In this document: positions 4,316 to 62,326 of the stretch, in pieces | Numbering within the stretch: position 1 is the first letter of the stretch | Layout: the number at the start of each line of letters is the position of its first letter | Source of the DNA: an uncultured PS1 clade bacterium | Lineage (GTDB): Bacteria > Pseudomonadota > Alphaproteobacteria > MED-G09 | Length of the DNA: 64,000 bases | Reading direction: 5' to 3' | NCBI GenBank assembly: GCA_902533755.1 | Contig: CACANC010000001.1 | Location: 3,668 to 67,667, forward strand | The notes under the pieces: generated by a model | The model's input: only the letters and a program-made list of their open reading frames with translations | Databases searched by the model: none | Told to the model about the DNA's origin: nothing | Program-made: the position numbers and the translations under genes

Positions 4316-5362
4316 TTGAAAAAATATTTGAATTTTCTTAGTTCTGATTTGGCTATAGATTTAGGTACAGTCAATACACTTATCCATCATCATGATAATG
4401 GAATAATTTTAAATGAACCGTCAATTTTGGCTGTGGATAAAGCAGATTTAAATATGGGTATAATTGCCATTGGGTCAAAAGCGAAAGAGATGCATGGCAG
4501 AACACCAGAAAACATTGAAACCATAAAACCAATGCGTGAAGGAATAATTGCTGATTATTTAGCTGCTGAAGAAATGCTAAAATATTTTATAAGCAAATCC
4601 TTATTAAATAAGAGCCTTTTTAGCCCTAGATTAATGATATGTGTTCCTGCAAGCTCTACTCCCGCTGAAAGAAAAGCTATTTTGGACTCTGGTTTAGCTA
4701 CTGGAGCTAGAAAAGTTTTTTTAATTGAAGAACCTATGGCTGCAGCTATAGGATCCGATCTCCCAGTTAATGAAGCAAAAGGCTCAATGATAATTGATAT
4801 AGGTGGGGGAACTACTGAAATTGCAATAATATCTCTTGGTGGAATAGTTTTTTCTAAGTCTATTAGAGTTGGTGGAAATGAATTTGATAAATCAATCATC
4901 TCTAATTTAAGAAGAAATGAAAATATCCAAATTGGTGAGATTACAGCAGAACAACTTAAAATACACATTGGTTCAGGGATTGTTCCCAAACATGGTGATG
5001 GAAGAAAGATGACAATAAAAGGTAAAGAGATAACAGAAGGAGTCCCAGTAGAGAAAGAAATTACTGAGAGACATATTTCCGAAAGCTTAGCCGAGGCATT
5101 ATTTGAAATTACAGAGACTATTAAGGAAGCATTTGAATCAGCTCCACCAGAATTAACTGGTGATATTTATGAGAATGGCATCCTTTTAACTGGTGGAGGT
5201 TCATTATTAGACAACATGGATGTAGTTATTGAGCGCGCAACAGGCCTGAAAGTAAAATATGCTGAAGAACCTTTATCAAGTGTAGCTTTAGGGTCAGGCA
5301 AAGTGATGAAAAATATAAAGACGATGAGAGATACATTAAGCACACCTTATGGCAGGCATTAA
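4316..5362 (+). CDS. mreB: Rod-shape-determining actin homolog MreB
   Basis: 348 aa. N-terminal DLAIDLGTVNTLI and actin-fold phosphate loops (IIDIGGGTTE). Confidence 0.9.
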   Translation: MKKYLNFLSSDLAIDLGTVNTLIHHHDNGIILNEPSILAVDKADLNMGIIAIGSKAKEMHGRTPENIETIKPMREGIIADYLAAEEMLKYFISKSLLNKSLFSPRLMICVPASSTPAERKAILDSGLATGARKVFLIEEPMAAAIGSDLPVNEAKGSMIIDIGGGTTEIAIISLGGIVFSKSIRVGGNEFDKSIISNLRRNENIQIGEITAEQLKIHIGSGIVPKHGDGRKMTIKGKEITEGVPVEKEITERHISESLAEALFEITETIKEAFESAPPELTGDIYENGILLTGGGSLLDNMDVVIERATGLKVKYAEEPLSSVALGSGKVMKNIKTMRDTLSTPYGRH

Positions 5363-5385
5363 AGGAATCAGTATAAAAATTAAAA

Positions 5386-7170
5386 ATGTATGAAAAAAAC
5401 AACGACATAAACCGTCGTGTATTTTTTGTTGGTGGAGGAATGATTATTCTTTCATCATTTCTTTTATCAAGGCTTTGGAAACTTCAAGTCAGTGAGCAAG
5501 ATAAATATTTACTATTATCTGATAAGAATCGCATAAGAATAACTCCATTATTTCCTAAAAGAGGCATCTTTTATGATCGAAATGGTAATGAATTAGCATT
5601 AAATTCTTCAAATTTTAAACTAACTTATTCCTCAGGGTCTGCTTTACCAGATCAAGTGCTTATAAAAAAAATTATGAATGAATTAAGTTTAGATAATGAT
5701 CAAATTGAGAAGATTAATAAGAGGATATTTAATAGAAAATTAAAAAAAATAGAAATAAAAGAAAATTTAACTATTGATGAAATATCTGCTTTAAATTTTT
5801 TAAATGATGATTTAGAGAGTTTTTTAATCGAAGATAACTCGAAAAGATCTTATATCAATTCGAAAAGCTTTTCTCATCTTATTGGATACACTGGCTTCAT
5901 AAATGATTCAAATTCAGAGAGTTTAAAAACTATTGGACTTTCTGGTTTAGAGTTAAAATTCGATCATATTTTATCAGGTCATTTAGGTTATGTGAAAACA
6001 GAAGTAAATTCTGAAGAAAAAAGCATACGTATTTTGGAGGAAAATAAAGCAATAAATGGTCAAGATGTAGTTTTAACAATTGATCAAGATCTTCAAAACG
6101 CCGTTCATAAAATAATGGGCAATAATGTTGGTGCAGCAACAGTAATGAATATCCAAAATGGCGAAATTTTGGCTATGTGTTCAACACCAAGTTTTGATAG
6201 CAATAAATTTATTGATGGCTTTAGTTACAATGAGTGGAATAAAATATCAGAAGATGAAAGAAAACCATTTTTGAACAAAGCTATTAATGGTGAATATCCT
6301 CCAGGCTCAACATTTAAAATCGTTACTGCTTTAGCTGGCCTAGAGGATGGGTTGCTTAACCCAGATGATAAGGTTTTTTGTAGCGGAAAAACAAAATATG
6401 GAAAAAGAAATTTTCATTGTTGGAAGGATAAGGGCCATGAAGAGGTCGATCTTAGAAAGGCAATAAAAGAATCTTGCGATGTCTATTTTTATGACCTTGC
6501 TAGAAGACTTGGTATTGAAAAGATTGCCAATATGGCTCTTCGATTAGGATTTGGTAGAAATTTCGATTTAATTAGCGACAAAGAGAGAAATGGGCTAGTA
6601 CCAACTAAAAATTGGATAGAAAATAATATTAATAATAATTGGAATTTAGGGGATACACTAGTTGCTGGTATCGGTCAGGGTTATATTTCTGCAACTCCTT
6701 TGCAATTAAATGTAATGATATCAATGATTGCAAACAAAGGGTTCTACATAGAACCTAAAATAATAAAATCACCAAATTTAAATAAAAAAAATAAAATAAG
6801 GCCTGCTGGATTTAATTTTTCTAACTTAGATTTGCTTAGAGATTTATTGGATATAGCTGTTAATGAAAAAGGCAGTAATGCTTATTCTAGCAGAATTGAA
6901 GCGGATAACTGGAGAATGGCTGGTAAGACTGGAACTTCACAAGTAAAAGAAATAACTGAAGAAGAAAGAAAAGAAGAAATAATTATTTCGAAAGTTTGGA
7001 ATGAAAGAGACCATGCTCTTTTTGTTGGTTATGCTCCAACAACACAACCAAAATATTCTGTTTCAATTGTTATCGAGCATGGAGGTTCAGGCAGCCAAAA
7101 AGCTGCGCCTCTAGGAAGGGATATTTTATTAGCATGTCAAAAAATTAAAACCCAGGGATCAAAAGCATAA
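5386..7170 (+). CDS. mrdA: Penicillin-binding protein 2 (elongasome transpeptidase)
   Basis: 594 aa. N-terminal TM segment, PBP dimerisation region, STFK active site (PPGSTFKIV) and KTG motif (GKTGTS). Confidence 0.88.
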   Translation: MYEKNNDINRRVFFVGGGMIILSSFLLSRLWKLQVSEQDKYLLLSDKNRIRITPLFPKRGIFYDRNGNELALNSSNFKLTYSSGSALPDQVLIKKIMNELSLDNDQIEKINKRIFNRKLKKIEIKENLTIDEISALNFLNDDLESFLIEDNSKRSYINSKSFSHLIGYTGFINDSNSESLKTIGLSGLELKFDHILSGHLGYVKTEVNSEEKSIRILEENKAINGQDVVLTIDQDLQNAVHKIMGNNVGAATVMNIQNGEILAMCSTPSFDSNKFIDGFSYNEWNKISEDERKPFLNKAINGEYPPGSTFKIVTALAGLEDGLLNPDDKVFCSGKTKYGKRNFHCWKDKGHEEVDLRKAIKESCDVYFYDLARRLGIEKIANMALRLGFGRNFDLISDKERNGLVPTKNWIENNINNNWNLGDTLVAGIGQGYISATPLQLNVMISMIANKGFYIEPKIIKSPNLNKKNKIRPAGFNFSNLDLLRDLLDIAVNEKGSNAYSSRIEADNWRMAGKTGTSQVKEITEEERKEEIIISKVWNERDHALFVGYAPTTQPKYSVSIVIEHGGSGSQKAAPLGRDILLACQKIKTQGSKA

Positions 7171-7172
7171 AA

Positions 7173-8315
7173 ATGTATAGAAAACAAAGAAAGAGCATTT
7201 TACATAAAAGAACTCTCTACTTTGATAAATTTAGAGGTATTAATTATGGCATACCACTTTGTTTACTTATGTTAGGTTCTACCGGATTATTGATGCTATT
7301 TTCCATTTCTGGTGGAGAATTTAATCAGACAGTAATGAATCATTTTCTTCGTTTAATAGTTGGATTCATATTTTTTATATTTTTTTCCTTTATTAGTTTT
7401 CGAATTCTGAGAGTTATTTCTTTTCCAATGTATTTTGTGATACTGGCTATGCTGGCTTGGCTATATGTATTTGAAACTTCAACAGTGTCTAGATGGATAA
7501 ATTTAGGCGGAACAAGTTTTCAGCCATCAGAGTTTTTAAAATTTATACTAATTTTAACATTAGCTTCCTATTATAGTTTTTTTGGAGAAAGCAAATCTAG
7601 GCAATTGAGATACAATGTATTACCAATAATACTAATTTTGGTTCCTTCTTTTTTAATTTTAAATCAACCTGATTTGGGGACAGCTGTTTTACTAATTCTA
7701 GCAGGGTTTTCAACTGTTTTCTTTTCTGGGCTTTATTTGAAATGGGTTGTATTGGGCTCATCATTTGTTTTTGTGACTATCCCGCTCATTATTGCTAGCT
7801 TAAAGCCTTACCAAATGAAAAGATTAGAAGTTTTTCTTGATCCTGATAAGGATCCTTTCGGATCAGGTTATCATATAATTCAATCAAAAATAGCAATTGG
7901 TTCTGGAGGTTTAATTGGAAAAGGTTTTATGTCAGGCACACAGAGTCAGCTTAATTTTCTTCCTGAAAAACATAATGATTTTATGTTAGCAGTGCTCCTT
8001 GAAGAAACAGGATTAGTAGGGGGAATATTTATTTTCTCAATTTTTTCCTACTTTATTATAATATCTATGCATACTTCAATCATAGCTAGAAGTCGATTTA
8101 GTTCAGTTGCATGTGGATCAATATCTGTGTTAATTTTTTTATATTTCTTTATTAATTGCGCGATGATAACTGGATTAATTCCAATAGTTGGTGTTCCAAT
8201 ACCTATGCTTTCATACGGTGGTTCAGCAATAATCTCTCTTTGTGCAGCGATGGGGTTTGTTCTTAATGCAAGAAGGCAAAGGGATATAAAGATTGAGAGT
8301 ATATTAGATGCATAG
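7173..8315 (+). CDS. rodA: Peptidoglycan glycosyltransferase RodA (SEDS family)
   Basis: 380 aa polytopic membrane protein with FtsW/RodA/SpoVE-like conserved C-terminal region. Immediately downstream of mrdA. Confidence 0.85.
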   Translation: MYRKQRKSILHKRTLYFDKFRGINYGIPLCLLMLGSTGLLMLFSISGGEFNQTVMNHFLRLIVGFIFFIFFSFISFRILRVISFPMYFVILAMLAWLYVFETSTVSRWINLGGTSFQPSEFLKFILILTLASYYSFFGESKSRQLRYNVLPIILILVPSFLILNQPDLGTAVLLILAGFSTVFFSGLYLKWVVLGSSFVFVTIPLIIASLKPYQMKRLEVFLDPDKDPFGSGYHIIQSKIAIGSGGLIGKGFMSGTQSQLNFLPEKHNDFMLAVLLEETGLVGGIFIFSIFSYFIIISMHTSIIARSRFSSVACGSISVLIFLYFFINCAMITGLIPIVGVPIPMLSYGGSAIISLCAAMGFVLNARRQRDIKIESILDA

Positions 8316-9135
8316 AATTCATCCAATTGATGAGATTATAGAAGAAAGATGTCCTAAATTGATGTCTAATAAGTTTTTGTGGTCGGTTATAAAGCCTACA
8401 ATTTTTAAAATATTTAAATATCAAACAGCAAAAAACATTACCGACGATATTTCTAATATATCTGGTTTTGAATGTTTTACTTATTTAACAAATCTGCTGA
8501 AATTTAATCTAGATATAAGAAATATTGAATTGGTACCAGAACATGGCCCAATCATATTAGCGGGAAATCATCCAACTGGTCTTACTGATGGAATAGTAAT
8601 GTTTGAAGTTATGAAAGATAGGCGCCCTGATTATACGCTTTATGCAAATGTTGACATGATTAAGTTATCTAGAGGTTTTGAAGATATTATTATTCCTGTC
8701 GATTGGAATGATGACAATAAAAACATTAGTAAAAGCAAAGAAATTCTGAAAAGAACGAAGGAGACTTTTACTGAAGGTAAGTGTTTATTGGTTTTTCCAT
8801 CATCTCGCCTTTCTAAAAGAAAAGGCTTCAAGTTGTTTGAAAGACCTTGGTTAAACACTATTGTTAAGTTGTCAAAGAAATATAATGCGCCAATTATACC
8901 TTTTCATATGGATGGACATAATTCACTTTTTTATTATTTTTTAGATATTTTTAATGAAGAATTAAAGAACATTAGTCTATTTAGCGAACTGGTAAATAAA
9001 GAGGAATTTAAGTATACAATTACTTTCGGTCGCCAAATTGATCCATTAGATATTAATGGCGATATTGATAAAGAAACCTCAAGAATCCAAAAGCATGTTG
9101 AATTTACACTTGGTAATCCACCCCTAATCCTATAG
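8308..9135 (+). CDS. Putative lysophospholipid/glycerolipid acyltransferase (LPLAT-like)
   Basis: 275 aa. Start overlaps the rodA stop by 8 nt. Contains AGNHPTGLTDG, resembling the acyltransferase HX4-5D catalytic block. No closer assignment possible by eye. Confidence 0.35.
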   Translation: MHRIHPIDEIIEERCPKLMSNKFLWSVIKPTIFKIFKYQTAKNITDDISNISGFECFTYLTNLLKFNLDIRNIELVPEHGPIILAGNHPTGLTDGIVMFEVMKDRRPDYTLYANVDMIKLSRGFEDIIIPVDWNDDNKNISKSKEILKRTKETFTEGKCLLVFPSSRLSKRKGFKLFERPWLNTIVKLSKKYNAPIIPFHMDGHNSLFYYFLDIFNEELKNISLFSELVNKEEFKYTITFGRQIDPLDINGDIDKETSRIQKHVEFTLGNPPLIL

Positions 9136-9155
9136 TTTATTTAGAAAGTTTTAAA

Positions 9156-10427
9156 ATGAATAAAAAAATAAAATCACCTGAAAATTATAATCTTTTAGAC
9201 CCCGATGTCATTGAAAGCCCCTATGAAGCCTATAAAGTTTATAGAGAAGAGGCCCCAGTTTATCATAGTAAAGATACGGGTTTTTATGTTGTCACTAAAT
9301 ATGATGATTTAAAAAGAGTATTAACGGATTACGATTACTTTTCACGTGATATAGCAGCCTATTGGGAAAAAGATTCAAAGCATAAAAAAAAGGGTTATTG
9401 GAAACACGGAGATAGTGTAGGAAGGGTTTTTCGAGAAAAGGGATGGCAGCAGATACCTTGTTTTGGTGCAGAGCCTCCATATCATACTAAATTTAGAAAG
9501 GCAGCAAACCCATCTTTTACTGCAAAAAGAGTAAAAAATATGGAACCATATATTGTGAATTTAATTAATGATTTAATTGATTCCTTTATAGATGATGGGG
9601 AGGTCGAGTTTGTTTCCCAATTTTGTATACCTTTACCAATGAATGTTATTCAAGATAGGTTAGGTTTTCCTAAAAAAGATCTTCCGAAACTTAAATCCTG
9701 GTCGCAAGATACTTCTGCAGGTTTAAGTCAAATGCTTAGCGAAGAAGAAGAAATATCTGTAGCTGAGAGGTTAGTAGAATTTCAACATTATATGGTTAAA
9801 ACATTTGAAGAAAAAAGATTAAATCCAAAAGATGATATAATTTCTGACCTTGTTAATTATATTGATGAAGATGGAAAGAAATTAGAAACTGAAGAACTTC
9901 TCTCAATTGTAAGTGACTTAAACATTGGTGGTAATGAGACAACTACTGATTCCTTAGGTAGTGGAATGTTGATGTTGATGCAACAAAGAGACAAGATGGA
10001 TGACCTTATCTCTGGAAAAGCAAAATATAAAAATTTCGTAGAGGAAATAATTAGACTAGAAACACCTGTGCAGAGTCTTTTTAGAAGAGTTAGAAAAGAT
10101 GTTTTGTTATCAGGGTTTGAAATACCAGAGGGTTCAATAATTGATATGCGTTTTGGATCAGCCAATAGAGATGAAGAACAATTTGAATGTCCTATGGATA
10201 TGATTTTGGATAGAAAAAACCCAGGTAAACATCTTGCGTATGGAACCTCTCATCATCATTGTATTGGCGCCCCTTTGGCAAGGCAAGAAATGAGATTAGC
10301 ATTTCAAATACTTCTAGAAAGACTAACTAATATCAATCTTGCTGAAAATAAAAATGACTTTCTTCATCGATCACATTTTGCTTTACGGGGTCTGAATAAA
10401 TTATATTTAACTTTTGAGAAAGCTTAG
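9156..10427 (+). CDS. Cytochrome P450 monooxygenase
   Basis: 423 aa. I-helix GGNETT, ExxR (ETPVQSLFRR) and heme-thiolate loop YGTSHHHCIGAPLA. Confidence 0.85.
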   Translation: MNKKIKSPENYNLLDPDVIESPYEAYKVYREEAPVYHSKDTGFYVVTKYDDLKRVLTDYDYFSRDIAAYWEKDSKHKKKGYWKHGDSVGRVFREKGWQQIPCFGAEPPYHTKFRKAANPSFTAKRVKNMEPYIVNLINDLIDSFIDDGEVEFVSQFCIPLPMNVIQDRLGFPKKDLPKLKSWSQDTSAGLSQMLSEEEEISVAERLVEFQHYMVKTFEEKRLNPKDDIISDLVNYIDEDGKKLETEELLSIVSDLNIGGNETTTDSLGSGMLMLMQQRDKMDDLISGKAKYKNFVEEIIRLETPVQSLFRRVRKDVLLSGFEIPEGSIIDMRFGSANRDEEQFECPMDMILDRKNPGKHLAYGTSHHHCIGAPLARQEMRLAFQILLERLTNINLAENKNDFLHRSHFALRGLNKLYLTFEKA

Positions 10428-10429
10428 AT

Positions 10430-11227
10430 ATGGCAGATAATTTTATTGGAAAAAATGCTCTTATTACAGGAGCTTCATCTGGGATAGGTAAAGATATAGC
10501 ATATATTATGGCTGAAAAGGGCATTAACCTGATCCTTTTAGCAAGGCGTGAAGATAACCTTATTAAGATAAAGGAAGATATACAGGATAAGTTTTCAATA
10601 AAAATAATGGTTATTGCAGCAGATTTAAGTCAGATACCTGAATATGAAAGAATTTATGATGAATGTAAAAGAAATGATCTTATGCCTGATTTTTTAGTCA
10701 ATAATGCAGGTTATGGAACTTTAGATAGCTTTCACAAGATTTCATATGAAGACCACATAAAGTTTATTAATGTTTTATCAACATCAGTTGTATCTTTAAC
10801 CCAGTTATTTATACAAAATATGATAAGTAATGGTTTTGGAAGAATTATTAATATTGCCTCACTTGCAGGATTTGCTCCAGCATCAAACTCTGGGGGTATG
10901 TATACTGCCGTTAAATCAATGGTAATTAAATTTTCAGAAGGCATTCATAAAGAATATAAAGATAATAATATTTATTGTTGTGCCGTTTGCCCAGGTTTTA
11001 CTCATACAGAATTTCACGATCAAATGGGCGAATTCAAAAGTTCTATACCGAGCTTTATGTGGATGAGCTCAAAAACCGTAGCCAAACAAGCTTTTGATGA
11101 GACAATGAAGGGTAAAGATTTATTTATTAACGGGGGAATAAATAAATTCCTAGCTTTTCTTATGTGGTTAACTCCAAAATGGTTAACAAATTTATATTAC
11201 AAACTAATTATGAGAAAGAGACCTTAA
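10430..11227 (+). CDS. Short-chain dehydrogenase/reductase (SDR)
   Basis: 265 aa. TGASSGIG cofactor motif, NNAG, and catalytic YxxxK (YTAVK). Start abuts the P450 stop, suggesting an operon. Confidence 0.8.
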   Translation: MADNFIGKNALITGASSGIGKDIAYIMAEKGINLILLARREDNLIKIKEDIQDKFSIKIMVIAADLSQIPEYERIYDECKRNDLMPDFLVNNAGYGTLDSFHKISYEDHIKFINVLSTSVVSLTQLFIQNMISNGFGRIINIASLAGFAPASNSGGMYTAVKSMVIKFSEGIHKEYKDNNIYCCAVCPGFTHTEFHDQMGEFKSSIPSFMWMSSKTVAKQAFDETMKGKDLFINGGINKFLAFLMWLTPKWLTNLYYKLIMRKRP

Positions 11228-11967
11228 AGGATTTTTGGAATAATTATTTTTCTTTCTTTTGGGTAATCTTCAAATTTTTCCTTGTACCATTTATGATGGC
11301 TTATAGCTCTTGGAAGTAAATTAAATATTGTCCAGAAAAAGAATACTAATCCAGATACGCTCCAAGTGAGAATAGCCCATCCAAGCCATTCTATAATTTC
11401 CCCCAAATAATTTGGGCTAGATACATATTTATACAATCCTTCTTGTGGAATTTTGTATCCATGCTCCGTATTTTTTGCTAATCGCATTAAGATATTGTCT
11501 GAATGAATATTAATGAAAGCACCTATAAGAAATATCAAAAAACCAATTATGAAGACTGGCTCTGTAAACCATGATATATCGTAATTAATATCAAGAAGAA
11601 AAAACCAATACCCGTGTAAGAAAGTGTTAACGGCATTGAATAAAAAGGCCATTAAGGCAACCAAAGCTGGCATTGTTCCATCTTTTTTTATTCTCATCGG
11701 CCATATAAAGCTTCTATTGAAATAATGTACTGACCATATAATCAAAAAGAAGATAAGAACAGGATTGCTAAATCCATCATAAAGAAAATAGTAGATCCAG
11801 AAAAGATATAATGCTGGGCTTTCCATTACTATCCAACCAAGTCTTTTGGGTATAGTTAATCCCCAGCCTGATCTTGAGTGTCTACCATAGGGAGCACTTA
11901 TTATAAGCAAAATGATAAAGGTAATAATACCAATAGTCATCCATATGTTTATCAGAATAGGGTACAT
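11224..11967 (-). CDS. Polytopic membrane protein, steroid 5-alpha-reductase / DUF1295 / ICMT-like family
   Basis: 247 aa with multiple TM helices. C-terminal block YKYVSSPNYLGEIIEWLGWA resembles the NADPH-binding region of 3-oxo-5α-steroid 4-dehydrogenase/DUF1295 proteins. Confidence 0.5.
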   Translation of the reverse strand: MYPILINIWMTIGIITFIILLIISAPYGRHSRSGWGLTIPKRLGWIVMESPALYLFWIYYFLYDGFSNPVLIFFLIIWSVHYFNRSFIWPMRIKKDGTMPALVALMAFLFNAVNTFLHGYWFFLLDINYDISWFTEPVFIIGFLIFLIGAFINIHSDNILMRLAKNTEHGYKIPQEGLYKYVSSPNYLGEIIEWLGWAILTWSVSGLVFFFWTIFNLLPRAISHHKWYKEKFEDYPKERKIIIPKIL

Positions 11968-12016
11968 AGCAATTTTAGGTTATCATAAAAAGTCTAAAGG
12001 TGATTCGTTAAATAAC

Positions 12017-12940
12017 ATGAAAAGAAAAATTTGGATAGATGGAGAATTTGTTGATTGGGATGATGCGTCAGTTCATATTCTTTCTCATTCCCATCAAAGG
12101 GGCTCATTGATTTTCGGTTTTATTCCTATTTTCGAAAATGAAAATGGAACATTTATTTTTAGGGTTGATAAACATATCGAGAGACTTCTCAAATCATGCC
12201 TTATGGCCGGAATTCCTATTGACTATATGGAGAATGAATTAATTAATGCAGTTTTTGATACGGTTAAAGAAAATCCCGGAAGTAAATTCATTAAAATCAG
12301 TGTTTATATTGCGTCCATAGAAATTGACGTAGTACCCCAGGATCCGTTTACCAAAGTTGCTATTGCTGCTTACGATCCTCAGAAGGATATTATCGAAAAG
12401 AATTCACAGCCATTTCATAGTTCCAAGCATTTAAGTGTGTGGATTGAGAAAGAGCGTCATCAGAGAAGACAAGATATCATTGAGCCGCAGATAAAAATAG
12501 CTGCCAATTATACTTCTCCAATGATGGCCAAGTGGGAAGCAAGAAAAAACGGATATGATGAAATCATCCTTACTGATAGTGAGGGCTATGTAACTGAGGC
12601 ACCAACATCGAATGTATTTATAGTTAATCGGGTTGGAGTCCTCAGGACGGCTCACGAGGACGAAGTTTTGCACGGCATTACCCGAATGAGCATTATCGAG
12701 ATAGCTGAAGACGAGGGCATAGAAATGGACATTGGACGCATCCCCCTTAGAGACCTCGAAGAGGCAAGGGAGGTTTTCATAACGTCATCTAGTCATCTTG
12801 TCTATCCAGTAAACAGTCTAGATGGAAAGCCTGTTGGAAATGGTGAAGCAGGAAAAACAACGATGATTCTGAAAAACCGATTTCTGAGAGTCACTGAAGG
12901 AAAAGACAATAAATTCAATAAATGGCTTTGCCCCGTATAG
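12017..12940 (+). CDS. Class IV (branched-chain / D-amino-acid) aminotransferase
   Basis: PLP fold-type IV features. Start placed at MKRKIWIDGEF (atg at 12017) rather than the ORF-track start at 11912, which would overlap the convergent upstream gene. Confidence 0.65.
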   Translation: MKRKIWIDGEFVDWDDASVHILSHSHQRGSLIFGFIPIFENENGTFIFRVDKHIERLLKSCLMAGIPIDYMENELINAVFDTVKENPGSKFIKISVYIASIEIDVVPQDPFTKVAIAAYDPQKDIIEKNSQPFHSSKHLSVWIEKERHQRRQDIIEPQIKIAANYTSPMMAKWEARKNGYDEIILTDSEGYVTEAPTSNVFIVNRVGVLRTAHEDEVLHGITRMSIIEIAEDEGIEMDIGRIPLRDLEEAREVFITSSSHLVYPVNSLDGKPVGNGEAGKTTMILKNRFLRVTEGKDNKFNKWLCPV

Positions 12941-12962
12941 GTTTATGAAACAATGAATAATT

Positions 12963-14333
12963 TCAAAATTGAGGAACCTTCTCTTTTCTGATCATAGTAT
13001 GAAGCCCTGATATTTTATTTAATCTTCTTGAAATAAGAGTTGCAAATATTGTCAAACCGACAATCATGCTGATCCACATTCCGCTTTCTCCCATGGGTTG
13101 GTTTATACCGTAATAAGTAAGATAGTAGCCAAAAGGTATAGCAAACACCCAATAGGCAATAATGATAAAAACCATTGTCATGAAAGTATCTTTATATCCT
13201 CTCAATGCCCCAAGACTTCCCATGCCAATACCATCGGGAATTTGGAAAATGGCAGCAAAAACAATTAAATGACTTGCAACGGAAAAAACCAGAACATCGG
13301 TTGTATAAAGTGATATAAGTTTGTCACCCATTGTGACTAGGAGTGTCATATTAAATAGGGCGCCAATTAAACATAGGTATACAGAAACCTTGGATGAGTA
13401 TCGTGCATCAATATATCTCTTTTCTCCCAGTAGATTACCGACCCTCGTTGATGCGGCAAGACCTATAGCCAGCGGTAACATAAATACAATGCTTGCAATG
13501 TTGAGTGCAACAGCATGACCCGAGACAACATTTTCTCCAAGCGGTGCTAGAATTATGGCAGCCCCTGAATACATGCTTAATTCAACAAATATTCCAAAAC
13601 CAATGGGGGTCCCAAGCTTGAAAACCTCCATGGAGGTTTTCAAAGATGGCCCATCAAATCTACTGAATAATTTATTTTTCTTATAGGATTTGGAAAATAA
13701 AACAATGCCAAGCATTGCAACAAACATTAGTGTTGAAACTATTGTTGTAGCATATCCACAACCAACACCTCCCATCTCTGGTAATCCGAAATATCCATAT
13801 ACAAATATTATATCCAGCGGGATATTTATTAATGCGCCCATGAAGACAACTATGAAAACTGGAATTGTAAGAGTTAAACCCTCGCTATATGAACTTAACA
13901 GTCTATACAATATATAGAAAAACATACCTATGGAAATTGCTTTGAGATAAGAAATAGATATTGAAGTAATTGTTTCATCAATAGGCAAAAAGATCAGTAA
14001 TTGGCTACCAAAATAGAAAATAATAACTAAAAGAAGGCCAAGTAAAACAGCCAACCAAAAGACTTCTCTTATTTTTTGACCTATTTCTAGATCTTTATTT
14101 GCACCATTAAGTTGCGCTACAATTGGAATGACAGAAAAAATTATCCCCGCCATAAACATGAAAATTGGATAAGTAAAGGAATTGGCTATTACAAGACCTG
14201 CGAGTTGGTCAGCTCCGGCTCTTCCAGCAACTATTGTATCCGTAGCTGACATAATCATAAATGATAATTGTGAACCAAGCATTGGAAAGCCAATACGAAA
14301 GAAATATTTGGATTCATTAAAGAATTTATTCAT
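12963..14333 (-). CDS. norM: MATE family multidrug/Na+ efflux transporter
   Basis: 456 aa, 12-TM profile, typical N-terminal MATE sequence (FRIGFPMLGSQLSFMIMSATDTIVAGR). Confidence 0.8.
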   Translation of the reverse strand: MNKFFNESKYFFRIGFPMLGSQLSFMIMSATDTIVAGRAGADQLAGLVIANSFTYPIFMFMAGIIFSVIPIVAQLNGANKDLEIGQKIREVFWLAVLLGLLLVIIFYFGSQLLIFLPIDETITSISISYLKAISIGMFFYILYRLLSSYSEGLTLTIPVFIVVFMGALINIPLDIIFVYGYFGLPEMGGVGCGYATTIVSTLMFVAMLGIVLFSKSYKKNKLFSRFDGPSLKTSMEVFKLGTPIGFGIFVELSMYSGAAIILAPLGENVVSGHAVALNIASIVFMLPLAIGLAASTRVGNLLGEKRYIDARYSSKVSVYLCLIGALFNMTLLVTMGDKLISLYTTDVLVFSVASHLIVFAAIFQIPDGIGMGSLGALRGYKDTFMTMVFIIIAYWVFAIPFGYYLTYYGINQPMGESGMWISMIVGLTIFATLISRRLNKISGLHTMIRKEKVPQF

Positions 14334-18336: not shown

Positions 18337-18971
18337 TGTCAAAGCAAAATAATACTCAAGAATTTCCTTCATATATTAATTCATTAAAGGGTTTTATGGA
18401 TCATGATGAAGGTAAATGTCTTAACAAATATGCAATTAAATCATCTGAGTACGGTCCTATTCTTGAAATAGGCTCTTACTGCGGAAAATCAACAATTTAT
18501 ATGGGTCTTGGAGTCAAAGGCAAGAATTGTTGCATTTATTCCATCGATCATCATATGGGATCAGAAGAAAATCAAGTTGGATGGGAATATCATGATTCTG
18601 ATCTTTTTGACGAAGAGACTGGAAAAATAAACTCTTTTCCTGAATTCATGCGTAATCTTCGTAAAGCTGATTTACTGGATACTGTGATACCAATAGTTTC
18701 AGACTCTTCATTGGTATCAAGAAATTGGAAAATACCTCTTTCAATGGTTTTTATAGATGGTGGCCATACAATGGAAACAGCTTTAAATGATTTCAATAAT
18801 TGGAAAGACAAAATTATTAAAGGAGGGATATTAGCAATCCATGATGTTTTTCCAAACCCTGATGATGGCGGTAGACCTCCATACGAAATTTACAAGAAAG
18901 CCTTATCAGAAGGAAATTTTAAAAAAGTTGAAGTTGTTAAATCAATGAGAATATTAGAAAAATTAAATTAG
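18336..18971 (+). CDS. Class I SAM-dependent methyltransferase (O-methyltransferase-like)
   Basis: 211 aa. Gly-rich SAM motif LEIGSYCGKST. ATG overlaps the AGCS stop (TAATG). Confidence 0.6.
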   Translation: MSKQNNTQEFPSYINSLKGFMDHDEGKCLNKYAIKSSEYGPILEIGSYCGKSTIYMGLGVKGKNCCIYSIDHHMGSEENQVGWEYHDSDLFDEETGKINSFPEFMRNLRKADLLDTVIPIVSDSSLVSRNWKIPLSMVFIDGGHTMETALNDFNNWKDKIIKGGILAIHDVFPNPDDGGRPPYEIYKKALSEGNFKKVEVVKSMRILEKLN

Positions 18972-20015
18972 ATTATCATCTAAAAAAATAGAAGAACCTT
19001 TTGAAAAATTATGAAGTGCATCGTAAGCTAAAATAACTGCAGCTGAGGTCCATCCAGGCTTTTCCATCGGCCAAAAAACTTTTTCAGTAACCTGCCTACC
19101 CATCCAATAAGCGCCATCACTATCAATGTAATCATTAATCCAAGACAATAATTCTTTAGCTTCATCTTTTTTTTGAATTTTAATTAAAGCAATAGCAAGT
19201 TCTGCTGTTTCAGCAATAGTAACCCATGGCTGATCCAAAACGCATAAACATCCTTTTTCATTTAGTACATATTTATTCCATTGAGAATTAATTCTTTCTT
19301 CCGCTTTTTTTCCAGCGATTGCTCCACAAAGAACAGGATAATACCAATCCATAGAGAATCTTTTTTTTGATTCCCATGTCTTATCAAAGCTCTCAGGTTT
19401 ATTTTTGATTGCATTTTCTAATTTTTCTAATGACTGAGTCCAATTAGGTCTTTCTTTATTTAATTGTGAGGCGCAATTAATTGCGCAAATGAGACTTTTG
19501 TATATTGAGCAACAACCAGTCAGAAGTGAATCATCTTTTGGTGCTTCAAGACTCTTTGCTGCCCATCTAATTGATCCATCCTTCATTTGATTTTCTATTA
19601 CAAAATTTATAGCTTTTTCTATCATCCCCCAATTATTAGTTAGGTTATCAACTGAATTGTTTATCAGAAAATCATGCCAGCAGGCTGTTGCAATATATGC
19701 CGCAAAATTTGTGTCTCTGAAAAATACTTTTGATTCTATATCTCTATTGATGAAAGTCCCTTTTTTTTCATCTATATCCAATGTGCTTCCAAGCTCTCCT
19801 AACCAAGAGCCATCATTTAATTGATTTTTTTTTAAATAAGAAAAACCTAAGTCAACTTCTTTTGAATATCCAAGAGCATTTAAAGCCATTACGCATTCAA
19901 GATGATTCCAAGCATCAAACACACCGTCTTCAGTCCAAGGTATGCAACCATCCTCTTTTTGCAATAAGATAATTCTTTTTATTGCCCCTTCTAAGTTTTT
20001 AGTTAATGAATTCAT
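18963..20015 (-). CDS. Prenyltransferase / squalene-oxidase-repeat (alpha/alpha-toroid) protein
   Basis: 350 aa with four Q-x-x-DG-(S/C)-W type repeats: QKEDGCIPW, QLNDGSW, QMKDGSIRW, DSDGAYW. These are characteristic of protein-prenyltransferase beta subunit and terpene-cyclase repeats. Confidence 0.5.
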   Translation of the reverse strand: MNSLTKNLEGAIKRIILLQKEDGCIPWTEDGVFDAWNHLECVMALNALGYSKEVDLGFSYLKKNQLNDGSWLGELGSTLDIDEKKGTFINRDIESKVFFRDTNFAAYIATACWHDFLINNSVDNLTNNWGMIEKAINFVIENQMKDGSIRWAAKSLEAPKDDSLLTGCCSIYKSLICAINCASQLNKERPNWTQSLEKLENAIKNKPESFDKTWESKKRFSMDWYYPVLCGAIAGKKAEERINSQWNKYVLNEKGCLCVLDQPWVTIAETAELAIALIKIQKKDEAKELLSWINDYIDSDGAYWMGRQVTEKVFWPMEKPGWTSAAVILAYDALHNFSKGSSIFLDDNLI

Positions 20016-22119: not shown

Positions 22120-23724
<1,605 letters not shown>

Positions 23725-23727
23725 AAC

Positions 23728-24909
23728 CTACTTCTTCATACTAAGTTCTCTCATAGCGTTGTCAATACCGTCAAGCGTAAGCGGGAACATTCTTCCAGAT
23801 AAAATTTGATTTATGATTTGTGTTGATGGGGTAAATTCCCAATGTTTTTCTTCAACGGGATTTAACCAAATCACATTAGAATAAATATCACTTATCCTTT
23901 CTAACCACAAACCACCTGGTTCTTCATTCCAATGCTCTACACTACCACCTGAATAAGTGATTTCATATGGACTCATTGACGCATCACCAACAAAGATGAT
24001 TTTATAATCTGATGAATATTTATGAAGAATATCCCATGTATTTAATCTTTCTGCATGCCTTCTTCTGTTATCCTTCCAAACATACTCATATAGACAATTA
24101 TGGAAGTAGAAGTTTTCCATATTTTTAAATTCAGTTCTTGCAGCAGAAAATAGTTCCTCACATAATTTAACATGAGGATCCATAGATCCGCCAATATCAA
24201 AAAATAAAAGAACTTTTACTTTATTTCTTCTTTCTGGAACTAGAGATATATCGAGATATCCTTTATCCGCTGTATTTTTTATTGTTCCAGGTAGATCTAA
24301 GGTATCTGCAGCACCTTCTCTTGCAAATTTCCGTAAACGTCTTAGTGCAAGTTTAATGTTTCTAATTCCTATTTCTATATCATCATCAAGATTTTTAAAT
24401 TCTCTTTTATCCCAAACTTTGACCGCCTTGAAATTTCTATTATTTTTTTGTCCTATTCTAACGCCCTCAGGATTGTACCCTTCAGCACCATATGGAGAAG
24501 TTCCCGCTGTACCAATCCATTTAGATCCACCTTCATGTCTTTTTTCTTGCTCTTCTAAACGTTTTTTTAATTCTTCCATAAGCTTTTCCCATCCGCCCAT
24601 GGATTCGATTTGTTTTTTTTCTTCTTCAGTAAGGTATTTTTCATTAAGAAGCTGCAGCCATTCTTCTGGAATTTCTGCAGTCTCTAATTCTTCAATGTTC
24701 TCTAATCCCTTAAATACATTACCAAAGACTCTGTCAAATTTATCTAAGTTCTTTTCATCCTTAACCAAAGTAGATCTTGATAAATAATAAAAGTCTTCAA
24801 CCTTTCTTTGGGGAATATCGGCACTTAAGGCTTCAATAAGAGTTAGGTATTCTCTTAATGTGACTGGAATATTGGCTTGTTTGAGTTCTTGAAAAAAATT
24901 AATAAACAT
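23728..24909 (-). CDS. VWA-domain protein (CoxE/NorD-like partner of MoxR ATPase)
   Basis: 393 aa. C-terminal von Willebrand A-like region (LLFFDIGGSMD metal-ion-dependent adhesion site (MIDAS)-like motif). Adjacent to and co-oriented with the MoxR ATPase. Confidence 0.7.
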   Translation of the reverse strand: MFINFFQELKQANIPVTLREYLTLIEALSADIPQRKVEDFYYLSRSTLVKDEKNLDKFDRVFGNVFKGLENIEELETAEIPEEWLQLLNEKYLTEEEKKQIESMGGWEKLMEELKKRLEEQEKRHEGGSKWIGTAGTSPYGAEGYNPEGVRIGQKNNRNFKAVKVWDKREFKNLDDDIEIGIRNIKLALRRLRKFAREGAADTLDLPGTIKNTADKGYLDISLVPERRNKVKVLLFFDIGGSMDPHVKLCEELFSAARTEFKNMENFYFHNCLYEYVWKDNRRRHAERLNTWDILHKYSSDYKIIFVGDASMSPYEITYSGGSVEHWNEEPGGLWLERISDIYSNVIWLNPVEEKHWEFTPSTQIINQILSGRMFPLTLDGIDNAMRELSMKK

Positions 24910-24911
24910 CT

Positions 24912-25763
24912 TTAATTTTGGTTATCTTCTCTTCTAGCTAAGAAAGCCAATCTCTCGAATAAGTGAACATCTTGTTCATTTTTAAGAAGTGCACCATGTA
25001 AAGGTGGAATTATATTATTAGAGTTCTTTTCTCTTAACATTTCAGGGGTTATATCTTCATTCATAAGCAACTTTAGCCAATCTAACAACTCAGATGTAGA
25101 TGGTTTTTTCTTAAGACCAGGTATTTCCCTTAACTCATAAAAAACTTTCAAAGATTCAGAGACCAATTTTGATTTGATATCTGGATAATGAACATCAACA
25201 ATCTTTTGCATTGTATCATTATCAGGAAAACTTATGTAGTGAAAGAAGCATCTTCTTAGGAAAGCATCTGGTAATTCTTTTTCATTATTAGAAGTGATTA
25301 TAACAACAGGTCTTTTTTCAGCTGCGATTGTTTCCCCTGTTTCGTAAACATAGAATTCCATTCTATCTAATTCTTGAAGTAAATCATTAGGAAACTCGAT
25401 ATCAGCTTTATCAATTTCATCAATTAAAAGGATAGGGCGTTTCTCAGACTCAAAGGCTTCCCATAGTTTTCCTTTTTTTATGTAATTCTTAACATCTTTA
25501 ACTTTTTCATCTCCAAGTTGTGAATCCCTTAGCCTTGTTATAGCATCATACTCATACAGACCTTGTTGAGCTTTTGTTGTCGACTTTATATGCCATGTTA
25601 AAATTGGCATATCTAGAGCTCTTGCTATTTCTTCAGCAAGAACAGTTTTACCTGTTCCGGGCTCACCTTTTACAAGTAAAGGTCTCTCAAGACTTATTGA
25701 AGCATTTACTGCAATTCTTAAATCCTCAGTAGCAATGTAATCTTTAGTTCCCTCAAATTTCAT
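24912..25763 (-). CDS. MoxR-family AAA+ ATPase (CoxD/NorQ/CbbQ-like)
   Basis: 283 aa. Walker A GEPGTGKT, Walker B LLIDEIDKA, and the short MoxR architecture. Confidence 0.8.
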   Translation of the reverse strand: MKFEGTKDYIATEDLRIAVNASISLERPLLVKGEPGTGKTVLAEEIARALDMPILTWHIKSTTKAQQGLYEYDAITRLRDSQLGDEKVKDVKNYIKKGKLWEAFESEKRPILLIDEIDKADIEFPNDLLQELDRMEFYVYETGETIAAEKRPVVIITSNNEKELPDAFLRRCFFHYISFPDNDTMQKIVDVHYPDIKSKLVSESLKVFYELREIPGLKKKPSTSELLDWLKLLMNEDITPEMLREKNSNNIIPPLHGALLKNEQDVHLFERLAFLARREDNQN

Positions 25764-53879: not shown

Positions 53880-55046
53880 ATGAATTCAGACAACAGTAAG
53901 GTTGATTTAGTGAGTCAGGATGAGATGTATGATCCATCTATATCGGCTTCAAAATTATTAAATGGAAATAGAGTCTACCATTATGATTTATATGATCCTC
54001 CATTTTATATATTATCTAGATATGAAGATATTAGCTATGCTTTAAGAGAGCCTGATATCTTTATCGAAGGACATGGAAATGGACCTAATTTTATTGATTC
54101 TTCCAATGGTGTGCTCTCTGATGGAGAGCACCACACATTGATCAGAAGGATTGTGCAGCCGAATTTTTTAATGGGCTCAATTGCAAAATTAGAAGAAAGA
54201 TTGGAAAAGATTGCAGAAGAGCTTCTTGATGATGTGATAGAAAAAGATACCTGGGATATCCATGATAATTTATCATTCCCGCTACCAGTAATAATTATAT
54301 GTGAGATATTAGGTATTCCTATTGATGACATTCATAAATTTAAGCGTTGGGCAGATGCTACAGTAGAACAAATGTGTAGCGAGGAACCTCAAAAATTTGA
54401 AAAAGAATTAAGTCAAATGAGAGATTATTTATTAGACCTCATACTTAAAAAAAGAAAACAAGACGAAGATAGCACCCTTTTATCAAGGATTGCTCATTCA
54501 AAAATTGATTCAAGTTATTTATCAGATGATGAGGCTGTGAATTTGACTGTGCAAATATTTGTTGCAGGAAATGAGACAACAACCTCTTTAATTTCGAATT
54601 TAGTTTGGAGATTAATGACTATCGATAATTTGTGGGAAGATTTTGTAAATAACAAAATTGATATTAATAACGCTATAAACGAGAGTCTTCGTTATGATCC
54701 TCCTCTCTTAGGGTTATTTAAAACTACATCTAAAGAAGTGAATATTGAAGGAAATATCATACCGAAAAATTCGAAAGTAATGATGCATTATGGTGCGGCA
54801 AATAGAGATCCTGTGATTTTTAAAAATCCAAACACATTTGATTTAACTCGAGATGGGAGCAAAGTAATTTCTTTTAGTGTAGGAGTTCATATTTGTTTGG
54901 GAAGAGAGCTTGCGCGGTTAGAGACTAAGGTTACACTTAATGCATTAAAAAAGAGATTTCCTAATCTAAGATTAATTAATGAAGGAGAGAGAGTGGGCCC
55001 CTTTCTTTTTTGGGGTAGAAAAAAACTTCCTGTTTCTCACAAATAA
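53880..55046 (+). CDS. Cytochrome P450 monooxygenase
   Basis: 388 aa. AGNETT I-helix, ExxR (ESLRYDPP), heme loop FSVGVHICLGRELA. Confidence 0.85.
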   Translation: MNSDNSKVDLVSQDEMYDPSISASKLLNGNRVYHYDLYDPPFYILSRYEDISYALREPDIFIEGHGNGPNFIDSSNGVLSDGEHHTLIRRIVQPNFLMGSIAKLEERLEKIAEELLDDVIEKDTWDIHDNLSFPLPVIIICEILGIPIDDIHKFKRWADATVEQMCSEEPQKFEKELSQMRDYLLDLILKKRKQDEDSTLLSRIAHSKIDSSYLSDDEAVNLTVQIFVAGNETTTSLISNLVWRLMTIDNLWEDFVNNKIDINNAINESLRYDPPLLGLFKTTSKEVNIEGNIIPKNSKVMMHYGAANRDPVIFKNPNTFDLTRDGSKVISFSVGVHICLGRELARLETKVTLNALKKRFPNLRLINEGERVGPFLFWGRKKLPVSHK

Positions 55047-55049
55047 AAA

Positions 55050-56525: not shown

Positions 56526-56572
56526 TTCTAATAATGCTGGTTTTATACTTACAAAGATTGTAATATTGGATC

Positions 56573-57328
56573 ATGAATAAAAAAATTAAAGAATCAGTTA
56601 GCGAAGAGGAATGGAATGCAAGGGTAGAGCTTGCAGCTTTATATAGGTTAGTTGCTTTATATGGTTGGGATGATCTTGTTTTTACTCATATCTCTGCGCG
56701 CGTTCCATCAGAACCTGAGCACTTCTTACTTAATCCATATGGTTTATTGTTCGATGAAATTTGTGCTTCTGATTTGGTTAAAATAGATCTTGAGGGAAAT
56801 AAGGTTTCTGAAACAAATTATAATGTTAATGCAGCTGGCTTTACAATTCATTCAGCAGTTCATTCTTCAGGTTCAAATAATCACGCTGTAATTCATACAC
56901 ATTCAAATGATGGAGTTGCTGTAGCAGCTCAAGAAGATGGTCTAATGCCAATAAGTCAGCACGCTATGGTTATTAGAAATGATTGCGCATATCATGACTA
57001 TGAAGGAATTGCTCTTAATTTAGATGAAAGAGAGAGATTAATTGACGATCTCGGTGATAAGCATTGCTTAATTTTAAAAAATCACGGTCTGTTAACAACC
57101 GGTGCTACTTGTGGAGATGCTTGGCTTCGTTTATTTTTTCTTGAAAGGGCATGCACCATGCAAATTAAAGCTTTAACAGGTGGTTTGAAACTCAATCAAG
57201 TTCCGACAGATGTTGTTGAGCTAGTTACCGAACAAGGTCAAATGGCATCCGATGATGGAATAGGCCAGCTTGCATGGCCTGGCCTTTTAAGAAAATTGGA
57301 TAAAATTGACCCCAGTTATAAGAATTAA
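56573..57328 (+). CDS. Class II aldolase/adducin-family protein
   Basis: 251 aa. His-rich Zn site (HTHSNDG...H) of the fuculose-phosphate-aldolase-like fold. Confidence 0.7.
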   Translation: MNKKIKESVSEEEWNARVELAALYRLVALYGWDDLVFTHISARVPSEPEHFLLNPYGLLFDEICASDLVKIDLEGNKVSETNYNVNAAGFTIHSAVHSSGSNNHAVIHTHSNDGVAVAAQEDGLMPISQHAMVIRNDCAYHDYEGIALNLDERERLIDDLGDKHCLILKNHGLLTTGATCGDAWLRLFFLERACTMQIKALTGGLKLNQVPTDVVELVTEQGQMASDDGIGQLAWPGLLRKLDKIDPSYKN

Positions 57329-57340
57329 AGAGGAGAAACA

Positions 57341-60905: not shown

Positions 60906-60909
60906 TTTT

Positions 60910-61386: not shown

Positions 61387-61391
61387 ATCTA

Positions 61392-61850: not shown

Positions 61851-61859
61851 TTTAATAAT

Positions 61860-62321: not shown

Positions 62322-62326
62322 TTAAT

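Follow-up and report, generated by a model that had tools for sequence, protein, structure and literature searches.

In gut Bacteroidetes, the isoallolithocholic acid (isoalloLCA) gene cluster combines a steroid 5α-reductase, a 5β-reductase and a 3β-hydroxysteroid dehydrogenase (3β-HSDH) (Li et al., bioRxiv 10.1101/2021.01.08.425963). DHRSX and SRD5A3 serve a three-step route from polyprenol to dolichol (PMC11250103), and PbSRD5A, a member of the steroid 5α-reductase (SRD5A) family, reduces progesterone in vitro (PMC7815742). Here we describe a cassette of three genes, encoding a cytochrome P450 (P450a), a classical short-chain dehydrogenase/reductase (SDR) and an SRD5A homolog, in a 64,000-nucleotide stretch (hereafter the window) of contig CACANC010000001.1 from an uncultured PS1 clade bacterium. 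Its nearest counterparts lie in OCS116, an alphaproteobacterial clade of uncertain placement: the SRD5A homolog is 98% identical to that of an OCS116 cluster bacterium, single amplified genome (SAG) AG-435-F03 (L007), which is of the same species, and exact copies of P450a occur on Tara Oceans contigs in identical gene order. The cassette probably processes a greasy ring or isoprenoid compound, and we consider it quite possible, if short of likely, that the trio acts in one pathway on one hydrophobic substrate that has, or is given, a keto group conjugated to a C=C bond.

An original prediction, made from the sequence letters, had called a P450-SDR operon convergent with a membrane reductase at 9156-11967, and open reading frames (ORFs) with Pfam assignments were confirmed there (Table 1). 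The SDR gene starts 2 nt past the P450a stop, and the two genes overlap in relatives, so that the SDR is predicted to be translationally coupled to P450a. The SDR and SRD5A genes lie tail-to-tail, with both stop codons within a common TTAA. Upstream, the acyltransferase start overlaps the rodA stop by 8 nt, and its end falls 20 nt ahead of P450a. The aminotransferase, divergent from the SRD5A homolog, has the same length as in relatives when started at the ATG at 12017, and scored 223 and 207 bits against NCBIfam IlvE models, slightly under cutoff; it is regarded as a positional frame gene and is not counted in the pathway. A promoter and terminator scan of 7000-13200 was uninformative (29 promoter-like sites against 30.2 expected; one terminator-like site against 3.5 expected), and an Rfam scan of the window returned one tRNA only, with no riboswitch or regulatory RNA near the cassette.

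Table 1. Genes of the cassette, its frame and the further P450 and redox genes of the window, with coordinates counted from the first letter of the window.
Feature	Position	Strand	Length (aa)	Basis and remarks
PlsC-type acyltransferase	8308-9135	+		Pfam Acyltransferase, E=3e-10; upstream frame of the cassette
P450a, cytochrome P450	9156-10427	+	423	Pfam p450, E=8e-23; intact, soluble, class-I-type
Classical SDR, predicted NADP(H)-type	10430-11227	+	265	Pfam adh_short, E=3e-42
SRD5A homolog, putative SRD5A1/2-type membrane NADPH enone reductase (3-oxo-5α-steroid 4-dehydrogenase family)	11224-11967	-	247	
Class IV (IlvE-like) aminotransferase	12017-12940	+	307	Pfam Aminotran_4, E=2.5e-37
[2Fe-2S] ferredoxin (Fdx), FdVI/PuxB (putidaredoxin/adrenodoxin) type	22120-22440	+	106	Fer2
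Thioredoxin-reductase-type ferredoxin-NADP+ reductase (FNR)	22437-23468/23507	-	343	Length from ATG 23468
P450b, intact P450 of no named family	53880-55046	+		tblastn, motifs; best PDB match 168 bits
P450c, CYP153A-subfamily P450 (alkane/terminal hydroxylase type)	59646-60905	+		PDB 7ANT and 3RWL matches

The membrane reductase had been labeled "steroid-5α-reductase/DUF1295-like", of which the first part held and the second proved too weak: against Pfam, the protein scored 174 bits with Steroid_dh (PF02544), 31 with DUF1295 and 26 with PEMT. It aligned end to end with PbSRD5A (PDB 7C83; 236 bits, 44% identity) and matched human SRD5A2 (7BW1) at 157 bits and 36% identity, while art-1, the sole TECR-type enoyl reductase among solved structures, reached 43 bits. 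Because of the full-length alignments with PbSRD5A and human SRD5A2, and a Steroid_dh score far above that of DUF1295, we regard the reductase as a true SRD5A1/2-type protein. The score gap to Steroid_dh and the SRD5A structures likewise ruled out a DUF1295 protein or an isoprenylcysteine methyltransferase ("Ste14" on some homologs). The hydrophobic profile is consistent with a multi-pass membrane protein. Catalytic Glu57 and Tyr91 (human SRD5A2 numbering) correspond to Glu49 and Tyr82, which are invariant in 28 homologs, and seven of the eight NADPH contacts (N160, D164, R171, N193, E197, R227, H231 and Y235 in human numbering) are kept, as N153, D157, N186, E190, R220, H224 and Y228.

All elements of the P450 signature (fold, heme-thiolate loop, ExxR, I-helix acid-alcohol pair) are present in P450a, with GGNETT at residue 258 (I-helix), EIIR at 297 (ExxR) and the heme-thiolate loop YGTSHHHCIG at 362. 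By nomenclature convention, membership of a named CYP family needs at least 40% identity; compared with solved structures and NCBIfam, P450a fits no named family, its best solved structures (~181 bits) being spread over CYP107, CYP109, CYP125, CYP142 and others and its NCBIfam matches being generic and sub-cutoff. The SDR carries the TGxxxGxG cofactor motif (TGASSGIG at 13), NNAG (at 91) and the catalytic Asn-Ser-Tyr-Lys residues of classical SDRs (YTAVK at 158). An Arg-Arg pair after strand β2 (ARR at 38) denotes NADP(H) preference in the standard SDR classification, and the SDR is therefore predicted to be NADP(H)-type. Its hydrophobic C-terminal tail, ending ...FLAFLMWLTPKWLTNLYYKLIMRKRP, suggests membrane association. 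The best NCBIfam model for the SDR was mycolate reductase (CmrA; 148 bits, sub-cutoff), and NCBIfam gave no equivalog-level match for P450a, P450b, the SDR, the SRD5A homolog or the acyltransferase.

More distant relatives of P450a occur in other settings. Orthologs of 60-63% identity in large-genome bacteria lie directly downstream of a MAPEG gene (L087 7444-7908, L089 7487-7906), and the cluster around a relative of 49% identity (L090) encodes luciferase-like monooxygenases, CoA-transferases, a MAPEG protein, an SDR and a squalene-hopene-cyclase-like protein. Relatives at ~41-43% identity belong to lipid or terpenoid-type catabolic clusters, one of them in an Erythrobacteraceae genome. The SDRs beside distant family members (L090-L092) are not orthologs of the window SDR (21-29% identity), and the P450-SDR pairing is therefore not demonstrably older than the OCS116 lineage.

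Conservation was assessed in 20-kb loci, namely the OCS116 loci among 80 genome loci with an SRD5A homolog together with contigs carrying orthologs of P450a or the SDR. OCS116 loci share a constant frame, with the acyltransferase upstream of the cassette in all of them and SRD5A-ilvE at the far end, around a variable slot. The slot holds P450-SDR in the window, the SAG and six Tara contigs (L001-L006; SDR identity 99-100%), and also in L096-L100 (83-87%). In L009, L093-L095 and L101-L102 (57-59%), it holds one or two pyrroloquinoline quinone (PQQ) dehydrogenases of the membrane glucose/quinate-dehydrogenase family, the P450, the SDR and an NmrA-like reductase; this extended form is tightly packed (gaps of 0-45 nt), and the end of the NmrA-like gene touches that of the convergent SRD5A gene. 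L008 has the P450 only, without the SDR, and L010 (SDR identity 55%) has a PQQ dehydrogenase, the SDR and the NmrA-like gene, without the P450. Save for these two loci, each one gene short, P450a-SDR-SRD5A is syntenic in every OCS116-lineage contig recovered. P450a orthologs at 74-100% identity occupy the same cassette, and SDR orthologs at 55-99% identity were always found within it. Based on this lineage-wide synteny and on one SDR cluster indexed in 295 assembly blocks, we take the cassette to be old, vertically inherited and abundant, and core to the lineage.

The form seen in the window is most likely a trimmed one, its sublineage having lost the PQQ dehydrogenase and NmrA-like genes and kept exactly P450, SDR and SRD5A adjacent. 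NmrA-like, PQQ dehydrogenase, MAPEG and extended SDR genes, companions elsewhere of the cassette or of P450a orthologs, were searched for across the window and none was found. GC content of the segment (0.31-0.32) equals the window average and is uniform around the cassette (0.31-0.33), so that the cassette bears no mark of an island, and a horizontally acquired island was ruled out by the unshifted composition and the lineage-wide synteny. The window is mostly housekeeping (ilvBHC, leuA, mreB-mrdA-rodA, recA, alaS, icd, rpsD, purLQCB, cysS, thrS). The adjacency of SRD5A to ilvE is kept in the OCS116 lineage and absent elsewhere, and no established unrelated role of the homologs in ilvE synteny, a possibility raised at the outset, turned up.

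Gene order around the frame varies among relatives. At 4316-8315 of the window, mreB, mrdA (penicillin-binding protein 2) and rodA follow one another at distances of 23 and 2 nt, and neither mreC nor mreD intervenes. In deeper relatives (L093, L009, L010), the acyltransferase directly follows leuA; the mreB-mrdA-rodA block is therefore differently placed among sublineages. After ilvE, deeper OCS116 relatives (L093 15241-18354) carry genes for a TonB-dependent receptor and an FA_hydroxylase, a member of the sterol desaturase/C4-methyl oxidase superfamily, at the place where the window has a MATE transporter gene.

SRD5A homologs of ~50% identity have a very wide distribution: 4214 database clusters match at E<1e-20, and hosts include SAR86, Bacteroidota, Marinimicrobia, Myxococcota, Actinomycetota and Marine Group II archaea. 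Our sample outside OCS116 comprised 76 loci from genomes of many phyla (within L011-L086), 68 of them with adequate flanks. Clustering of the neighbors placed an extended SDR (~330 aa) within 250 nt of the SRD5A homolog in 45 of the 76 loci, or 41 of the 68 with adequate flanks. It stands directly upstream and co-directional in 27 loci and convergent with a 3-7 nt overlap in 14, mostly from SAR86, the latter being the geometry of the window. These extended SDRs pass the Pfam thresholds for Epimerase and 3Beta_HSD, and their best NCBIfam models are HpnA and SdmB (sterol C4-demethylation reductase), both sub-cutoff. The general rule is an SRD5A homolog beside an SDR-superfamily partner; an alcohol oxidase or dehydrogenase often lies close by. 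OCS116 fills these roles with the classical SDR, the NmrA-like protein and the PQQ dehydrogenase, and alone adds a P450. In the SAR86 loci (L020-L085, e.g., L066 8225-9904), a choline-dehydrogenase-like GMC oxidoreductase gene lies divergently on the other side of SRD5A, and patatin-like and rhodanese genes are also nearby.

The family assignments uphold the earlier idea of an enzyme set that oxidizes, dehydrogenates and reduces. In the single pathway that we regard as possible, the substrate would be imported and hydrophobic, an alicyclic or isoprenoid (steroid-like) alcohol or ketone, and the membrane-tethered NADP(H)-type SDR would interconvert its hydroxyl and keto groups, assisted in relatives by the periplasmic PQQ dehydrogenases and the NmrA-like protein. 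The seven-helix SRD5A homolog would then saturate the C=C bond conjugated to the keto group, with hydride passing from NAD(P)H to the β carbon and Tyr82 and Glu49 polarizing and protonating the enone. Soluble P450a would hydroxylate another site of the molecule, with electrons from the unlinked FdVI/PuxB-type ferredoxin at 22120-22440. We infer the single pathway, the order of its steps, the substrate class and the electron donor from the gene identities, the intact catalytic motifs, the P450-SDR coupling, the conservation across the lineage and the SRD5A-SDR pairing of other phyla, all of which were observed directly.

The main rival reading, only a little less probable, is that the genes are positional neighbors only; P450a and the SDR (with the PQQ dehydrogenases in relatives) would then be a unit complete in itself, hydroxylating a hydrophobic growth substrate and oxidizing the alcohol, and the SRD5A homolog would do a separate job within a frozen gene order. 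Such an arrangement would agree with the first group of observations that weigh against one shared pathway. The SRD5A gene lies on the strand opposite to P450-SDR and is transcribed separately. Synteny in the lineage extends over the whole stretch ilvBHC-leuA...ilvE-MATE-ABC, and adjacency alone is therefore no proof of functional coupling. The components are separable, the SRD5A homolog being kept both in L008, with the P450 and without the SDR, and in L010, with the SDR and NmrA-like genes and without the P450. The P450-SRD5A linkage is specific to the OCS116 lineage, with a P450 found within 10 kb of the SRD5A homolog in none of the 76 non-OCS116 genomes. Members of the P450a family at 40-63% identity occur without an SRD5A homolog, and either adjoin MAPEG or sit in clusters with CoA-ligase, enoyl-CoA hydratase and acyl-CoA dehydrogenase genes.

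A second group of observations counting against the shared pathway concerns the enzymes themselves. The partner in OCS116 is a classical SDR and not the 3β-HSD-like extended SDR of other phyla. P450a, which has no characterized close relative, is uninformative on substrate, and its distant family members belong to varied catabolic clusters with SDRs that are not orthologous to that of the window. No regulator, transporter or gene of steroid catabolism, such as KstD or Ksh, accompanies the cassette in the window. In the SRD5A homolog, the NADPH-contact residue R171 is replaced by Ala164, and by Ala or Ser in all OCS116-lineage orthologs, a change limited to that lineage, since the position remains Arg in other phyla; R171S is a human cofactor-binding mutation. 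The QEY signature reads MEY, with Met48 at the position of Q56, as in every environmental bacterial or archaeal homolog aligned, Gln occurring in PbSRD5A and the human reductase alone. Changing this Gln to Ala or Leu (Q56A/L) inactivates the human reductase (PMC7815742). Given both replacements, the handling of substrate or cofactor may differ from that of mammalian SRD5A enzymes.

Two findings speak against mere neighborhood and for a joint role of the trio. The genes that stayed once those for the PQQ dehydrogenase and the NmrA-like protein were lost still adjoin, with overlapping stop codons. In most other phyla, an SDR-superfamily gene likewise stands beside the SRD5A homolog in this geometry, so that an adjacent SDR partner is the rule and not a coincidence.

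The position of the acyltransferase raises a different, and in our view unlikely, alternative, namely that the cell modifies its own lipids, with acyltransferase-P450-SDR tailoring an aminolipid or another acyl lipid of the membrane and the SRD5A homolog saturating an endogenous isoprenoid such as polyprenal. The acyltransferase is always upstream and co-directional and resembles lyso-aminolipid O-acyltransferases, its best NCBIfam models being the OlsF N-terminal domain (120 bits) and GlsA (93 bits), both sub-cutoff. The string stands directly behind mreB-mrdA-rodA with no intergenic space, an envelope context; CmrA, the best model of the SDR, is a lipid ketoreductase; the genes belong to the lineage core and have no regulator or transporter; and the DHRSX/SRD5A3 pair sets a precedent for an SDR and an SRD5A-family reductase acting on isoprenoid alcohols. 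However, every NCBIfam score is well under its family cutoff, and no OlsB/GlsB-type N-acyltransferase was found nearby. The reductase is also much nearer to SRD5A1/2 and PbSRD5A (157-236 bits) than to the TECR type (43 bits), a comparison that covers no SRD5A3-type structure. In relatives in which the acyltransferase follows leuA, periplasmic PQQ dehydrogenases part it from the P450, and catabolism therefore fits better than lipid tailoring.

The original prediction had counted three P450s in 64 kb, and tblastn recovered all three, each with P450 signature motifs; the search for named families placed P450c in CYP153A and left P450a and P450b in none. P450b lies between NAD kinase and FGGY kinase genes, is 86-95% identical in close relatives (L103, L105, L107) and does not occupy this position in L108 and L114-L116; it is a recent, sublineage-specific insertion, the only one among the three P450s. 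P450c matched 7ANT (612 bits, 67% identity) and CYP153A7 (3RWL; 593 bits, 66% identity), and so belongs to the CYP153A subfamily, which is defined by at least 55% identity to a member. A CYP153A gene is consistent with alkane consumption by such bacteria.

P450c is flanked by genes for a Mo-hydroxylase large subunit and a flavin reductase. At 53880-63355, nine co-directional, tightly spaced genes encode, in order, P450b, an FGGY kinase, a class II aldolase, the Mo-hydroxylase large subunit, CYP153A, the flavin reductase, two weak SRPBCC/Polyketide_cyc2-like proteins and an APH-type kinase, an unusual setting for CYP153; the FAD and FeS subunit genes are not adjacent to that of the Mo-hydroxylase large subunit. 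Without P450b, this string stays syntenic in relatives whose CYP153 is as little as 75% identical. In other taxa (L142-L178, CYP153 identity 63-68%), a ferredoxin gene often adjoins CYP153, and its product shares 47-54% identity with the window Fdx. No Fdx or ferredoxin reductase (FdR) gene adjoins P450c, and OCS116-lineage CYP153 loci likewise carry no adjacent Fdx, having lost it or never had it. Because the CYP153-adjacent ferredoxins elsewhere are similar to the window Fdx and OCS116 loci carry none, the Fdx at 22120-22440 may reasonably be seen as a P450 donor in trans, and it is the only candidate P450 electron donor identified in the window. We also considered the flavin reductase encoded behind CYP153A as a P450 redox partner, and found no support for it.

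An adrenodoxin-type Fdx/FNR pair had been proposed as the classic class I P450 redox chain; the type of the ferredoxin was borne out, and the dedicated chain was not. The best PDB matches of Fdx are 3HUI (139 bits), FdVI (1E9M; 134 bits), and terpredoxin and putidaredoxin (90-103 bits), with adrenodoxin also matched, and its four Cys ligands lie at 40, 46, 49 and 86. The reductase is of the thioredoxin reductase type and not of the putidaredoxin reductase (PdR) or adrenodoxin reductase type: it scored 479 bits with Rhodopseudomonas palustris FNR (PDB 5YGQ), its other top matches are labeled ferredoxin-NADP reductase or thioredoxin reductase, and it lacks a CxxC motif and has HRRKDFR at 198 (HRRxxxR motif). 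Of the ORFs scanned in the window, none was PdR-like. The two genes converge with a 4-nt overlap, hence form no operon, and lie 10 kb or more from every P450. The pair is invariant within the population. The R. palustris homologs RPA3954 (FNR) and RPA3956 (Fdx, PuxB) are likewise near neighbors by locus tag, so that Fdx/FNR is best read as a conserved alphaproteobacterial neighborhood and not as a dedicated class I chain. R. palustris RpFNR is reported to show low reactivity with the ferredoxin RPA3956 (PMC9137726).

The longest FNR ORF starts at a TTG at 23507. Within 23470-25763 on the minus strand, an 84-aa ORF with a lipoprotein-like N-terminus overlaps this extended start, and the ATG at 23468 is therefore the more likely one; upstream lie genes for a CoxE-like von Willebrand factor A protein and a MoxR-type AAA ATPase. 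A 350-aa ORF at 18963-20015 on the minus strand, between two methyltransferase genes and a GT4 glycosyltransferase gene, has no Pfam family and a faint SQHop_cyclase_C match (E=0.002).

These results bear on the accessory interpretation of the original prediction, by which the trio would be an acquired module of a P450-rich metabolism served by a dedicated adrenodoxin-type Fdx/FNR chain. Three intact P450s in 64 kb, a ferredoxin of putidaredoxin/adrenodoxin type like those linked to CYP153, and the recent insertion of P450b agree with it. For the other two P450s it is largely refuted by its own test, since the P450a cassette and CYP153A are syntenic in relatives across the lineage. There is no compositional anomaly, the thioredoxin-reductase-type FNR converges with Fdx far from the P450s, and R. 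palustris has a like Fdx/FNR neighborhood whose reductase reacts poorly with that Fdx. As a whole, we hold this interpretation to be highly improbable.

Every component belongs to a known family, and an SRD5A and SDR cluster has already been characterized in gut bacteria; current knowledge is not overturned by the cassette. What appears to be new is a fixed form with a coupled P450 and a classical SDR in a streamlined marine alphaproteobacterium, and the breadth of SDR/SRD5A pairing in marine plankton, the SRD5A-extended SDR module seeming far more widespread than the gut Bacteroidetes example. In the literature searched, a single paper mentions OCS116 together with P450, and its subject is marine Actinobacteriota. 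OCS116 and its relatives are common in surface-ocean metagenomes. That a streamlined genome keeps a P450, an SDR and an enone reductase yet sheds the neighboring dehydrogenases makes routine use in the open ocean probable, and the likeliest use of the cassette is the processing of lipophilic compounds from phytoplankton.

Stanol/stenol ratios serve geochemists as a proxy for bacterial degradation, and to our knowledge the enzymes of marine sterol-to-stanol hydrogenation are unassigned. A speculative and quite improbable extension is that the SRD5A and SDR modules of marine plankton are the enzymes that hydrogenate algal sterols to 5α-stanols, a microbial conversion long known from seawater and from sinking particles, or other allylic isoprenoid alcohols such as phytol. 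Oxidation to the enone would be followed by saturation by SRD5A and reduction to the alcohol, and in OCS116 hydroxylation by the P450 would divert the product to catabolism. Marine geochemistry regards stanols as widespread products of bacterial sterol hydrogenation (PMC8704379). The SRD5A-SDR pairs across planktonic phyla, archaea included, are testable candidate genes for marine sterol or isoprenoid hydrogenation.

Compared with known systems, the reductase resembles PbSRD5A (7C83) and human SRD5A1/2 in full-length homology, in the catalytic Glu and Tyr and in all but one NADPH contact, and departs from them in the Met of its QEY signature and the Ala (Ala or Ser in OCS116) at the Arg171 equivalent; its host is, as far as can be judged, a sterol-free planktonic bacterium. 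The experimentally established Bacteroidetes isoalloLCA cluster likewise unites an SRD5A homolog with an SDR-type gene, and shares the logic of enone to saturated ketone to alcohol. In contrast to that cluster, the window has no BaiCD-like flavin 5β-reductase, its neighbors being acyltransferase, P450, SDR, aminotransferase and MATE transporter genes; the partner is a classical membrane-tailed SDR in translational coupling with a P450; PQQ dehydrogenases and an NmrA-like protein join them in relatives; and, given the marine free-living habitat, bile acids are not the expected substrate. DHRSX and SRD5A3 offer a possible analogy, in that an SDR and an SRD5A-family reductase saturate a C=C bond beside an alcohol via a carbonyl intermediate, whereas the window reductase falls in the SRD5A1/2 branch (157-236 bits against 43 for the TECR type, with no SRD5A3 structure compared) and no link to glycosylation genes was seen.

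Among the redox components, P450c is akin to the P450 of CYP153A operons (Fdx-CYP153-FdR), being 66% identical to CYP153A7, and differs from them in its place between the Mo-hydroxylase large subunit and flavin reductase genes, without Fdx or FdR. The Fdx/FNR pair is like R. palustris RpFNR (RPA3954) and RPA3956, with 479 bits for FNR (5YGQ) and 139 bits for Fdx (3HUI) and with genes close together in both organisms. The extended-SDR and SRD5A module of SAR86, Bacteroidota, Marinimicrobia and Marine Group II archaea shares with the window an SRD5A gene that abuts an SDR-superfamily gene, and in SAR86 also the convergent arrangement with overlapping stops, whereas OCS116 has in its place a classical SDR, with an NmrA-like protein in deeper branches, and a P450.

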